Shown here piece by piece: positions 5,434-57,354 of a stretch of 64,000 nucleotides of DNA. The notes under the pieces were generated by a model that worked only from the letters and a program-made list of their open reading frames with translations, was not told the origin of the DNA and did not search any database. The stretch lies in the NCBI GenBank assembly GCA_951406725.2, contig OX597815.1:38812001-38876000 (forward strand), in the 5' to 3' direction. The position numbers and the translations under genes are program-made. Each line of letters begins with the position of its first letter. Positions within the stretch are counted from its first letter, which is position 1. This DNA is from Octopus vulgaris (taxonomy: Eukaryota).

Positions 5434-7160
5434 AAATTTACAGAAAAACAAAAGATGAAGATGCGTGTATGAACAACAAGCAGGTGTATTAGTTTGACGC
5501 TCGGGAAAGTGAGAAATTCTTTTACGTTTCGTGCCTACGCTCTTCAGCAGAAAAGAATAATTGAAAATAAACAGAGATAATTTTTTAAATCTTGTGGAAT
5601 TAGCGATGAAGCATGGCGACTGGTTGGGAGAAAAAAGCTTTGACAGGAGAGGTAGAAAGAAAGGGAGATAATAAAGTAACGATGATCCCAAAACGTGCGT
5701 GTGTATATGAGAATGAATGTGTAAATATATGGATGGGGGCCAGTGACTTTGACGTGTGGATGTGTGCATATTTGTGTGCGTCTGTAATGTGTGGGTGTGT
5801 GGATGATGGTGTATTGGTGTGTGAATGAAGGTGTGTGGTGTGAGTGCTGGGAAGTGGTCAGTGCTAGTGTGTGGAGTAGTGTGGGAGGGCGTGAGGTGGG
5901 TGTGGATGGGGATGTGGGTGCGAGATGGAGACGTGGAGGTAGTGGTCGGGTATGTGGGTTTGGGTGTGGGAGGAGAGGGTATCAATGAAGAGAAAAGGTA
6001 GATGTCAGATGAAGAGAGGAGAGGAGGGGAGTCAGATGAAGAGGGGAGGGACGTTGAGCTCATGTGGTGCAAAGGAGCCAAGAGAGAAGATTAATTCATG
6101 TTCACAGCGAAGGCAGGAGTCCAGATGGCCTCTGTGCAAAAACAATCCGAACACAGACAGGTGTTGTAGTGAATGACCGGTAGAGCGGAAATGGCGCGAG
6201 ACCGGCGTTTCATTGCCGAATCTGATATCCTGGAGGTGCTCCGCGAACCTCCAGATGGTGGTGTTGGAGAGGTAGGAGTAAATGTGTCAGCATGAGCGGG
6301 AGCAGGGGAATGAGCCAGGTTAGGAGGTGAGTTAGGGAAGAAACTATGGACCATGAGGTCATGCATGTTGTGGGCTTATTTGAAAGAATGAAGGGACAGC
6401 TTGGGGTAGGTTGGGGAAGATGTGCAAGGTGGAGGGGTAGGACTGGAGTCGCCTGAAAGCTCGGAGAATGGTGCGTTGGAGGGGCAGGGTAGAGAGGTGG
6501 TAAATAAGGGAAACGGGAGACGAGCAACAGCGAGGCGGGTGCAGGGAGAGAGATTAGATGCATGGTCGACGGAACGTGCTCTGGCAAGGGTTTTGTAGAT
6601 AGTGGTGAGGGGATATCCACGAAGGATGAAGTGGCGAGCCATGAGCTGAGACTTAGTCTCAAAATCATGGTTGTCACTGCAGAACCAAGGGATGGAGAGC
6701 TTGGTGTGTAGAGGGGTAGGAGAAGTTAAGGGATGAGTGGGAGTCGGTGTGTTTGTAGTGAATAGAGGTAATGACAGCAGAATGGTGTATGTTGACCGAA
6801 GTCGAGAAATGCGACGGAAGTGTTGGAAATAGTGCTGTGGAATTCGAGGGCAGGATGGAAGGATTGAACAAAATAGAAGAAGGAGTCTAGTTATTCGCGG
6901 GAAAGTGAGATCGCACCGATACAGTCATCAATATACCGTCCGTATAGTTCGTGAGTGGACCCAGTGAATCGTAAGAATTACCTCAACGTAGCCAATGAAC
7001 AGGTTCGCATAGCTGGTGCCGATTCTCGTTCTCATGGCCACACTCGAGACACGTTGGTAAAAATCTCCCGCGAACGAGAAGCAATTGAAGGAGAGAACAA
7101 GTTCGGCCAAACGAAGAAGTATGGAGGTGTCAAGTTGGGAGTAGGGTCAAAGGTCTACAC
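5432..7160 (-). mobile_element. Penelope-like element, 5'-truncated and decayed, with 3' UTR/pLTR
   Basis: RT motif FYQRVSSVAMRTRIGTSYANLFIGYVE (cf. GVAMGT.MGPSYANLF), RGYP thumb segment, GIY-YIG tail EHELIFSLGSFAPH; hammerhead variant at 5517-5557. Confidence 0.85.
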
Positions 7161-7190: not shown

Positions 7191-8802
7191 CAGTTGCGGC
7201 CAAAATGTTCAGAACGGCATTGTTTTCGTCAGAAAAGTAGGTATAAGTTTTTATCAAAGTTGTTTTATATATCTATAATTTTCACAGACAATAAATAAGA
7301 TATGAATTATTATTGTCTGAGATTTTGGTGTAATTTGAGAGGATAATACAAAAGTTATGGATGATTTAATGATTTACTGCAAAACCCATGGCGGCCAAAA
7401 TGATCAGAACGGTTGAAAAAAAATAGTAAAATAATCAAAAATGACAGAGAATACTGGAATTATTTAATATTTAGTGTGAAACCCTTTAGCTTCAATCACA
7501 CTTTGACATCTTCGACTGCATGAGGAAATTAAATTTTCAATTTCTTGCTGGGTGATCTTATTCCATTCTTCCTGAAGGGCATTCCATAATTGCTCGGTTG
7601 TTTTAGGATTTCTGGCTTTCGAACGTTCTCCTAGAATATTCCACACATTTTCAATAGGATTAAGATCTGGGCTTTGAGCAGGCCAATCCATAACAATAAT
7701 CTTTTCAGCCTTGAGAAAGTTCATGACCACCTTAGCCTTGTGACATGGGGCATTGTCCTGCATGAATATGGGTGATCGCTTAGTTGAATTTCTCAGCACA
7801 GGCAAGACATGATCTTTTACAAGTTGTTTATAAACTCCTGCACTTACCTTTCCATGTAATCGCACCAAAGGGTCCACACCATCTCCAGATATCATCCCCC
7901 AAACCATGACACTTCCTCCACCGAATTTAACACTAGTCTTAAGGCATTTAGGCGATAATTTTTCACCTACTTTTCGACAAACGTACCTTTTCCCATCTGA
8001 GCCAAATAACATAGACTTAGATTTATCACCGAAATGCACCTTTTGCCATTTTTCTTGAGACCACAACACATGTTCGGTTGCAAAGGTAAGACGACACTTT
8101 TTATTCTTGGAGCTGATCAGTGGCTTCACTGCAAGTGCTCTTGCTTGTAGGTCATGTTCAACTAAACGACGAGACACAGTTTTTCGAAATAAAGTTTTTT
8201 TCAGTACAATGCTCATTTCCCAAGAAACAGCAGCAGCAGTTTTAAATCTATCCTTTTTAACCAACTTTACCATAGCACGATCTTCTCTCTTGGTCGTTTT
8301 TCTTGTCCTACCTGTAAACTTTCTTGCTTCACACGAACCACAATCATCGTAGACCTTAAGAATACCGTGAACAACACTTTTTCACTTGTTAACAATCTTT
8401 GCAATAGACCCAATACTTAAATTATCCTTCTTTCGAAGCTTAATAATCTGCTGACGAATTGGTAACAGAGTAAGTAGCATTATATTAACAAAGTACACTG
8501 CAGATACTCTTACTAATGTTTAGTAAACGAACCGTCAGGTAAACAAATTCAAAACATTGGAGTTCACCGGTTAAATATACTAAAACACGGAGTAAAAGCA
8601 ACCGTTCGGATCATTTTGGCCGCCATGGGTTTTGCAGTAAATCACTAAATCATCCATAACTTTTGATTTATCCTCTCAAATTACACCAAAATATTGTATT
8701 TATTGTCTGCGAAAATTATAGAAAATAAAACAACTTTGATAAAAACTTATACCTACTTTTCTGACGAAAACAATGCCGTTCTGAACATTTTGGCCGCAAC
8801 TG
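7191..8802 (-). mobile_element. Tc1-family DNA transposon, full length, IR/DR type
   Basis: TA target duplication at both ends; ~220-bp TIRs (CAGTTGCGGCCAAAATG..) each with outer and inner direct repeat GCGGCCAAAATG.TCAGAACGG. Confidence 0.97.
7464..8480 (-). pseudogene. Tc1 transposase, DD34E, 338 codons with one in-frame TGA at 8382-8384
   Basis: ATG at 8480 is in frame with ORF 7464-8273; motifs GR.RKT, FGD, MQDNAPCH, WPAQSPDLNPIE with 34 residues between D and E. Confidence 0.92.
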
Positions 8803-9753
8803 TATGTGTGCATAAACTTGTGTGTGTATCTTTATATGAATGTGTGTGTATGTGTCTTTATATGAATGTGTATGCGTGTTTAAATGTGTGAATGCGTGTA
8901 CACATATTTATACTTGCTTTATATATACATGGGTGTGTGTGGCTTTTACAATCGTCTCGGTGCATCAGTATTTTTTTCAACGATATAGTAAGGGATCATA
9001 CACCATAGTTTATACATGCAGAACTTTTTAAAAAATTAGAAAGCAAATAAAATAATATATGATAATCATAAATTCAAAAGCAGAATCATTGTTTCATGAT
9101 CCGGAAGACAAACCGTTATTTTTGTTATTTCGTGGCGTGGTGGGGCTTTTGTTCGACTAGGTTAAAGAGATTAAAAATCTAAATACTAAAATGTATAAAC
9201 TCACAGCTAATAATTTCAAACGTAAAATGGGCAAAGCTAAGGCTTCAAAATATATAGCTATCGAATATGAGAAACAAAGTGGTACGGTCCATACTATAAT
9301 TGTATCTATATTGATGTAATGTGTGACAATTGATTGTAGAACGTTTATGTGACTGTAACTTGAATTATATATGGACGTAAAACAGAAAGCTTCTTTTTTT
9401 TAAATTATATATAACATGTATACATCTAGAGGTAAATTTACTTATGGAATTTATGAAGGAATATATTGAATCACAAATTGACTGGAAAAGAAGGAAAATA
9501 AGTGAATAAGGTATAGATTTGAAAGAATCATATTTGTTGCAACCGATAAATATTGCGAGAAATGATAGCGATGTCGATAAACTTTTGTTCTGGAATGAAA
9601 ATCTTAGACTTGAAAGGAAACAGAATAAAAACGCATTAAATTTGTGTGATGTATGAAGAGAAATCAGAAGAATTTAAATAAATTTATATATTGTAAAACC
9701 TCACAGTATGTTGAATAAAAATGTAAATCCGTCCTTTCTATTTGTGCACGGAG

Positions 9754-10122
9754 AAACCCTTACATGCTTAGAAATAGCAGTCAAAACCGCTATAAAGCCA
9801 CTATAAACACTCATATCTTCTCAACAACAAAAGCTGCCGGCGAGCGACATGATATTAAAATTCTTGCAGATCGGAACACATGTTAAACCCCAAGGTATGC
9901 TTTTTTGTGTGTGTTAATTTCTTTGTACAGGAATGTTCTCCCGACGAGAGGAATGGATCCACTTTTGGTTCCTAACTTCGAAATTGCAATAGAGGACTAA
10001 CCTTTTATTTAAGTTTTGAATTTTAACGTCATGTCGCAGCTTATATGGTTGAGGAGATATAATATGAGCTTATAGTGGCTTTATAGCGGCTTTGACTGCT
10101 AATTCTAAGCATGTAATAGTTT
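9754..10122 (+). mobile_element. Fold-back element (~105-bp inverted arms) enclosing a hammerhead motif
   Basis: Arms 9754-9863 and 10018-10122 are reverse complementary with indels. Confidence 0.8.
9935..9997 (+). ncRNA. Type I hammerhead-like motif (U4 changed to C)
   Basis: gttctc-CCGACGA-gaggaa...ttc-GAAAT-tgca-ATA-gaggac; 6-bp stem I with one G-U, palindromic stem III ATTGCAAT. Confidence 0.7.
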
Positions 10123-10859
10123 TTATAACCCTTTCCGTTATAATTGTGATTTAGTCACATTTATACACCCTTCTTTTATGAAAATTAATTTTTTGGTTGC
10201 ATGTCCTGGCCACTGATACATTCGTAAATAATTTTGAATTGTTTACAATATATCCTGCGTAATGTATTTTTACATTCATTCCTCTTTTATATATGTTAGT
10301 GTGTGTAGGTGTCTGTAAGTCTGTCTGTCTGTATGTGTGTGTGTATGTGTGTTTGCGTCTTTGTGTGCATGTATCTGTATGTGTATGAAGACAAGCACAC
10401 TCACACACACACATATGTATGTACATGTTTCAATGATTCAACGCTTTACTAGAGAGAGAAGGATAGGAGAGTAACCATGGACCCCATTTTGCAAACCCAT
10501 CAAAATTGGTGGGATGAAAGAGAAATTCTGCAAAGAACATCGACACATGAGAGGACTGCATTAAACCGAGCGATGAAATATGTCTGATGCTCATGTACAA
10601 ACTATATAACATTATTAACCCCTTGACAACGGTTGACGCAAATATGCGGTCACACTTTTGCTTGCTACCCGCGGTTAACGTAAATATACGATAAAGAGCT
10701 GCCCTACATCTATCACAGACTTTTTTTAGCGGCTGACGTATGTTTACGTTCGCTATCATGTACTTTATCTCTTGAGGTGCGCGCGCTCTCCGTCCCGTGC
10801 ATTATCTTAGCTATTTTAGGTTACGTTCAAGTCATGAGACTAGCAGTAGACCAATGACA

Positions 10860-39709: not shown

Positions 39710-39711
<2 letters not shown>

Positions 39712-39945
39712 AAAATTATTATAATTATAAACATAATTATAATTAGAGCTTAGCAAAATTGCTTCACCACATACCGAAATTTAGAAATAGCAGTTAAATA
39801 CTATTCTACTACCATAAGACATCTCCAAGACAACAATACTCTCACACTGGCAAAGAGGAAAAAATAACGAATCCACATACCGATAATGGTTCTTTTAACA
39901 TACCGAACTACTTGCTAAGATTAATAATTATAAATTATAAGATTA

Positions 39946-39950
<5 letters not shown>
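39710..39950 (+). mobile_element. Truncated relative of the 55780 fold-back arm
   Basis: Shares ttcaccacataccgaaatttagaaatagcag..ctaccataag..agacaacaatactc. Confidence 0.75.
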
Positions 39951-55779: not shown

Positions 55780-56372
55780 TTAAATAAAAATTCATTATAA
55801 TTATGAGTATAATTATAATTATGGTTCAGCAAAAGATTTGGTTCACCACATACCGAAATTTAGAAATAGCAGCCAAAATTAGTTATTTCTCTACCATAAG
55901 AAAATTTCCTAGACAATAATACTCAACAACTCGATAACACACATGGGTAGTTGAGGGAGAATACGAGATCTCATTCGTCTGTTTGAATTCGGAGATACTG
56001 GTCATTGGATGTAGTTTGTCTGATGTCGCTAGGTCAGATAAGGTATGCTCAATTTTTTACAGTGCCCTCAAATTTAAAATCTTGAAATACTGTACTGAAG
56101 AGCGAGAATGATAGAATAGAAATGTGTTTTTTTACATTTTTCATAACTATCTAACTCCGAAACGCGTCTACAGTTAATCTAAGCCGAGTGAATTCGTTAT
56201 TTTTTCTCTTTGCCTACGTGGGTTGTTGAGTATTGTTGTCTGGGAGATTTTATTATGGTAGAGAAATAGCTAGTTTTGGCTGCTATTTCTAAATTTCGGT
56301 ATGTGGTGAACCAAATCTTTTGCTGAACCATAATTATAATTATATTCATAATTATAATGAATTTTTATTTAA
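55780..56372 (+). mobile_element. 593-bp fold-back element with 153-bp inverted arms enclosing an intact hammerhead
   Basis: Arms 55780-55932 and 56220-56372 differ at 8 positions by my count; further G-U-rich pairing inside. Confidence 0.9.
56089..56174 (+). ncRNA. Type I hammerhead ribozyme, intact core, short palindromic stem III
   Basis: actgta-CTGAAGA-g(c)gag..gatag..ctatc..ctcc-GAAAC-gc-GTC-tacagt; predicted cleavage after C56168. Confidence 0.88.
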
Positions 56373-56804
56373 GTTTACCGATAATCGCTACATGCTGAAC
56401 TACTTGGCATAATTATTAATTATTAATTAATTAATTAATTTTACCCTTTATCATTATTGATGATATGTAAGCAATTATATAAGTATGTATATGTATGTAT
56501 TTATATACGTGTATATATGTGTATATATGTACGCATTTATATGTGTATATACGTATGCCTCTATATATGTGTATGTATGTATGTATACATCTATATATGC
56601 ACATATATGTATACATCTATATATGTATACATATGTATGCATCTACATATATGTATATATGTATGCATTTATATAAGCGTATATATGTATGCATTTATAT
56701 ATGTGCGTATATGTACTTATAGATGTTTCAGTACATGTGTATAGGTATGGTCCAGTGTATGGGCGTCTTTCTGTATATATACGAAGATATGCATCCGTCA
56801 ACAT

Positions 56805-57146: not shown

Positions 57147-57354
57147 AGCTGGCAGAAACGTTAGCACGCCGGGCGAAATGCGTAGCCGTATTTCGTCTGT
57201 CGTTACGTTCTGGGTTCAAATTCTGCCGAGGTCGACTTTGCCTTTCATCTTTTCGGGGTCGATAAATTAAGTACCAGTTACGCACTGAGGTCAATATAAT
57301 CGACTTTATCCGTTTGTCTGTCCTTGTTTGTCCTCTCTGTGTTTAACCCCTTGT
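57147..57354 (+). mobile_element. SINE (family of 54722)
   Basis: Colinear with 54731-54938. Confidence 0.88.

Follow-up and report, generated by a model that had tools for sequence, protein, structure and literature searches.

A non-coding hammerhead repeat with mirror-image arms in Octopus vulgaris, probably left by Penelope-type insertion

We hold with considerable confidence that the element at positions 9748-10290 of the window (the whole 64,000-nt stretch of Octopus vulgaris DNA analyzed here, C2:38812001-38876000 of a 2.8-Gb genome in 227 contigs) is a non-coding hammerhead repeat, likely copied in by the reverse transcriptase/endonuclease of a Penelope-type element (PLE), with a fold-back that likely arose from the insertion. 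The element is classed as non-autonomous, Penelope-type and retrozyme-like, and as neither an autonomous PLE nor a MITE. Its mirror-image arms are likely a by-product of PLE insertion rather than a selected RNA shape. The restriction of a tail to one arm, the two alternative 3′ ends, the 5′ truncation and the inversion, taken together, fit the published PLE footprint. A literature search returned no paper on this repeat family, which may already be recorded in supplements or in Repbase/Dfam.

The window is AT-rich and dense in microsatellites. Two inverted arms around a loop, as described in an earlier note on this DNA, are present at 9754-9863 and 10018-10122 (78.8% identity over 113 columns), and the region 9754-10122 folds with z = -12.9 (an equally good fold in 0 of 100 shuffles). 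These coordinates hold for the arms but not for the full extent of the element, as homology to other copies of its family (family A) reaches ~10290 and the left arm, followed across a 10-nt deletion, starts at 9748 (Table 1). The junction overlap is defined by an arm match to query position 114 and a direct match from query position 111. The outer end of the left arm lies ~50 nt short of the short 3′ end of family A and has no microsatellite, a (TA)n-type AT-rich flank being found on the right side only. Neither an open reading frame (ORF) of ≥110 aa within 9748-10290 nor a PLE protein match at this element was found. With arms 79% alike and a U4C core, the copy is old and decayed, and probably inert. 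Elsewhere in the window, a broken remnant matching PLE reverse transcriptases lies at ~6511-7140 on the minus strand (tblastn E ∼1e-9), and a Tc1/mariner transposase frame of 304 aa, with HTH_Tnp_Tc3_2 and DDE_3 over cut-off, at 7464-8381 on the same strand. A 180-nt inverted pair (54120-54299/54780-54959; 94%) is probably a common short repeat, found also at 57196-57354 and 2121-2271.

Table 1. Positions of the element, its parts and its relatives within the window.
Feature	Position	Strand	Description
Left arm	9748..9863	-	Inverted 5′-truncated copy of the 3′ part of the unit; tail absent
19-nt motif in left arm	9768..9786	+	Superfamily-wide motif; antisense to the element here
Junction overlap	9860..9863	.	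4-nt microhomology between inverted and direct copies
Direct copy, family A unit	9860..10290	+	5′-truncated; 431 nt of ~560-nt unit
Type I hammerhead	9935..9997	+	U4C core, extended stem II with AAT/TAA internal loop, palindromic stem III
Right arm	10018..10122	+	Portion of direct copy repeated by inverted copy
19-nt motif, sense copy in right arm	10090..10108	.	2 mismatches
Unit remainder to short 3′ end	10123..10179	+	AT-rich hairpin ~10140-10164
Tail, ~111 nt	10180..10290	+	Right arm only; stops at long 3′ end
Degenerate TA/TG microsatellite flank	10291..10420	.	Likely target
Third superfamily copy (B type)	39711..39950	-	Between two (TA)n runs; inverted tail stub plus direct copy
Family B relative	55780..56465	+	Inverted arm 55780-55930 (short end); direct copy 55929 to ~56465 (with tail)
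Family B window hammerhead	56089..56174	+	Canonical

The loop holds a hammerhead with a single core change, in agreement with the earlier note; it is of type I. Stem I (9935-9940/9992-9997) forms 6/6 pairs, stem II runs from 9948 to 9979, GAAA occupies 9980-9983 and the palindromic stem III 9983-9990; all pairs in the three stems are standard, and cleavage is predicted after 9991. The core strand CCGACGA (9941-9947) departs from the canonical core CUGANGA/GAAA/UH by a change of U4 to C at 9942; according to PMC3088659, this substitution reduces in vitro activity, although a viroid tolerates it. Across the 64 kb, a custom hammerhead descriptor matched exactly twice, at 9941 and at 56095. An Rfam scan of the window gave a hammerhead hit at neither element, and nearly all of the matches listed (150 of 221) were microsatellite-driven miRNA matches. 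For comparison with other copies, the family A search gave 366 first-look candidates (40 scored, 30 fetched) and the family B search 2,172 (30 fetched). The core of the 30 family A copies began with CTG in 15, with CCG (U4C) in 8 and with other or deleted bases in 7, and the strict whole-motif test was passed by 3/30 family A and 15/30 family B copies. Family A hammerheads are decayed, and those with U4C formed no clear subfamily (identity 82.5% within vs 81.8% between). In 15 hammerhead copies from several subfamilies the core words and the AAT/TAA loop of stem II were kept, and the hammerhead lay 111-138 nt upstream of a 19-nt motif. Paired cells made up 86.9% of this alignment, with two-sided changes in 11 of 13 pairs, a covariation of 0.64 vs 0.10-0.12 in slid controls, and the first stem II pair unpaired in 8 of the 15 rows. 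Comparison of these sequences supports a hammerhead fold conserved with compensatory changes across subfamilies; the covariation counts as support rather than proof, because these are related sequences that also served to derive the structure.

The 19-nt motif is common to two of the window's elements (9768-9786 and 55860-55878), as the earlier note had seen, and occurs genome-wide in 3,987 exact matches (reversed control: 0), so that the two elements are likely relatives. The note was also right that they otherwise do not align: their local score of 88 compares with 66 ± 8 (maximum 94) in 300 shuffles. Families A and B are nonetheless judged likely relatives within one superfamily because their landmarks (core, stem II loop and motif) come in the same order, and their shared layout is therefore not independent evidence. 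This kinship through ordered landmarks, with a whole-unit alignment that does not rise above shuffles, counts against our reading. The family B element folds with z = -30.1, and its arms end at TTAA-like bases. The third copy (39711-39950) lacks a hammerhead as well as matching long arms, its direct copy being truncated downstream of the hammerhead. In another part of the genome, a short fold-back (L085, 801-1030) has a 3′ region with features of both families and may be a bridge between A and B.

Copies of the superfamily are numerous and dispersed, hold no ORF, and occur as monomers and partial tandems of a ~550-nt unit. Periods of ~560 and 496 nt were found in family A and of 545-558 nt between direct motif pairs; family A tandems occur. 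The window copy comprises less than one unit. In both families the sequence 3′ of one copy matches the sequence 5′ of others, so the unit is circularly permuted. The 5′ truncation varies among copies. In sister subfamilies, copies repeated in direct tandem at 545-558 nt carry two canonical cores (L147, L151 and L156). The first 100 motif matches fell into 74 clusters, of which 50 held a single match, 20 were fold-backs, 3 were direct and 1 was opposite, with at most 3 motif copies per cluster and no long arrays; the 20 fold-back clusters are a lower bound because exact matching overlooks diverged partners. Assembled contigs of four runs contain sequence related to the family B element, of which the contigs do not give start, end, strand or circularity, so that they weigh neither for nor against expression as RNA. 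Four near-identical copies of one fold-back (L130, L132, L136 and L138; C1:21.09-22.27 Mb) share the same flanks, which points to segmental duplication; in one of them the junction sequence occurs three times over.

Arms and hammerhead are separable. The earlier note had argued that an architecture conserved across families marks a functional class rather than a chance inversion; recurrence across families and a non-chance origin were borne out, whereas the arms and hammerhead as a conserved unit were not. An inverted arm within 1 kb was found at 12 of the 30 best family A copies, although the query was biased toward copies with arms, and at none of the other 18; in the AT-palindromic family B the same test may give false positives (e.g., L033). 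Most family A copies match only query positions 111-376, i.e., without the left arm. Conversely, among 20 fold-backs chosen by motif alone on contig C1, a relaxed descriptor found a hammerhead in 9 and none in 11, of which 6 span <150 nt and are too short to contain one. The note had named copies lacking either arms or hammerhead as the observation that would speak against it, and both kinds occur. Ten family A fold-backs have arms of 67-521 nt and loops of 154-299 nt. To see whether inversion points cluster at the cut site, 17 short-armed loci were compared: their arms had inner ends 3-77 nt upstream of the motif, with the cut at ~100-128 nt, long-armed loci having dropped out of this comparison.

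Copies stop at one of two fixed 3′ positions, a short end or a long end ~90-120 nt farther, often in (TA)n; many 3′ ends adjoin (TA)n or (CA)n. Once duplicates were removed, 42 fold-backs remained: 39 paired a tailed arm with a short one, 3 were short/short and none was tail/tail. After the four duplicated loci were collapsed to one and two complex loci (L042 and L007) dropped, the tail-plus-short arrangement accounted for 34 of 37 (P = 5 × 10−8 vs independent choice). A tail was present in 22 of 53 single copies. In all these counts “short” means that no tail signature was found, and the class thus includes damaged ends such as the left end of the window copy. We propose more tentatively, at a little less than an even chance, that the ~550-nt retrozymes, thousands in number, share one 3′ RNA handle and that every two-armed insertion was made by a PLE dimer, its halves having to start at different fixed sites on opposite strands. 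If true, Penelope-type insertion would follow a rule at which the published description of an often one-ended tail only hints, and the tail would be three times as long as usual.

Intact-ORF PLE families with reverse transcriptase and GIY-YIG domains are present in the genome, with products of 781 and 775 aa. A coding partner was sought among GIY-YIG loci L061-L090 and 30 loci of the 775-aa family; at none of these 60 PLE loci (≥3 families, among thousands of candidates) was the 3′ domain joined to an ORF end. Profile matches at L068, L085, L089 and L172 lay apart from the ORF ends (L068 read base by base). At ~780-830 on the minus strand of L068, the 3′ end of the 781-aa family appears by eye to contain a hammerhead whose core has a U3-A8 pair, a variant described in PMC4209133, and whose stem III is palindromic. 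Upstream of the 781-aa ORF, an overlapping frame of 330-400 codons was seen in 4/4 copies (L081-L084); if real, it would be unusual for a single-ORF PLE. At L087, a coding fragment with reverse transcriptase and GIY-YIG domains is accompanied by a 766-nt, 100% identical inverted copy within (TA)n, a layout like that of the fold-backs. At L042 (1-3150; C5:132.81 Mb), inverted and direct family B units are joined straight to a 5′-truncated PLE ORF fragment whose 3′ end differs from that of the B units. This may reflect a nested insertion or a switch of template by a single enzyme; the latter would point to a partner.

The features of the superfamily have counterparts in described PLEs. Craig et al. 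2021 (PMC8557442) report PLEs with partial tandems, an inverted 5′-truncated copy, a 30-40 bp tail that is often one-ended, and (TA)n targets. The octopus repeat resembles the endonuclease-bearing groups treated there (Penelope/Poseidon, Neptune, Hydra and Naiad) in its partial tandems and 5′ truncation, in an inverted 5′-truncated copy at the 5′ end, in a tail at one end only, in (TA)n targets, and in a type I hammerhead, which in those elements lies in the terminal repeat. It differs from them in having no ORF and a tail of ~90-120 nt rather than 30-40 bp, and in that the 60 PLE loci yielded no coding partner sharing its end. For Poseidon from Anolis (PAc), Frangieh et al. 2024 (PMC11167929) describe two reverse transcription start sites, which set the limits of the tail; both strands are extended, and a dimer is predicted. 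The two fixed ends or starts and the AT-rich targets are shared with our repeat, and both-strand extension was shown in PAc; unlike the window repeat, the PAc starts lie inside its ORF, ~30-40 nt apart. Opposite-strand pairing of the two start sites, suggested here by genomic counts, is not reported for PAc in that description.

Metazoan non-LTR retrozymes, as defined and tied to PLEs by Cervera and de la Pena 2020 (PMC7229834) and Li et al. 2026 (bioRxiv 10.64898/2026.07.22.740005), offer a second comparison. They too are non-coding low-GC units with one type I hammerhead each, occurring as monomers and dimers, and have been proposed to be PLE derivatives. The ~550-nt unit is longer than the RNAs of 170-400 nt in PMC7229834 but falls within the 51-972 bp given by Li, Clavereau and Pollet 2026. 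Unlike metazoan retrozymes, the octopus repeat formed no long arrays (≤3 motif copies per cluster among the first 100 matches) and is described here from genomic DNA. The main text of PMC7229834 makes no mention of “inverted”. Cervera and de la Pena 2014 (PMC4209133) describe a palindromic helix III, and hammerheads that occur in pairs on opposite strands, separated by 100-700 bp. Our hammerheads match their minimal and variant PLE motifs in a large helix II, a short palindromic helix III suiting dimers, and opposite-strand pairs, and differ in a conserved AAT/TAA stem II loop with a variable distal stem and in U4C at 8/30 family A copies. The element behaves like a PLE-mobilised retrozyme.

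That arms and hammerhead instead form one functional, replicated unit, a selected rod-shaped (viroid-like) RNA, is very unlikely. Both window elements fold far above shuffles, yet such z-scores arise from any DNA palindrome; the layout is repeated in several subfamilies, but its arm and loop lengths vary by locus, 18/30 family A copies are armless and 11/20 fold-backs have no hammerhead. Arm mismatches on the ribozyme strand give a mixed picture in the window, with 6 G·U vs 0 A·C in the family B copy, as a rod would have it, and 2 vs 6 in the family A copy. Over 16 fold-backs the two kinds were balanced (49 G·U vs 46 A·C; p = 0.84), and the lack of a G·U bias means that there is no sign of rod selection. 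The inverted ends, and the TTAA-like bases at the arm ends of the family B element, would also suit a MITE-like DNA transposon with terminal inverted repeats around a captured hammerhead. Fixed terminal inverted repeats at both ends are absent, however, most copies are one-ended, the ends are unequal (tail on one side), arm length varies and partial tandems occur, and we regard this origin as extremely unlikely.

Closer to the preferred reading of a PLE-mobilised repeat is the suggestion that the copies are not separately mobile but pseudo-LTR debris, left when a coding PLE was truncated to its 3′ end, which we consider unlikely. Coding PLEs do leave 5′ truncation, inverted copies and tails (PMC8557442), at L042 B units adjoin a fragment of a PLE ORF, and the 60 PLE loci examined are a small share of all. 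Nevertheless, upstream extensions of the copies enter the tail and start of another unit rather than an ORF, the direct tandems of the sister subfamilies carry two canonical cores, and the ORF fragment at L042 has a different 3′ end. Distinctly unlikely as well is an origin of the arms that followed priming or was independent of it, through fold-back synthesis or repair copying of the direct copy. Microhomology at the junction and the 99.7% identity of young arms (L147 and L151) agree with later copying, but the inverted arm stops at a fixed family end unlike the end of the other arm, and it is often the longer-ended one, which simple copying does not predict.

Under the preferred reading, the element would have arisen by steps drawn from the cited systems, among them transcription, cleavage, circularisation, PLE binding and two-strand priming. 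A tandem source locus would be transcribed, and its hammerheads would cut the transcript into RNAs of unit length, which might be circular. The conserved 3′ domain with its 19-nt motif would then be bound by a PLE protein that nicks both strands of an AT-rich target; on one strand cDNA would start at the inner site, on the opposite strand at the outer site. Two unfinished cDNAs, joined head to head via a few bases of microhomology, would then produce the palindrome.

The finding is one of ordinary mobile-element debris, and scans for fold-backs with ribozymes in such genomes will yield many viroid-like false leads. The palindromes, if read through in transcripts, would form long double-stranded RNA. 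The strictly one-sided tail and the shared 3′ motif lead to a concrete prediction on how inverted copies form, a step left undefined in the literature cited here.
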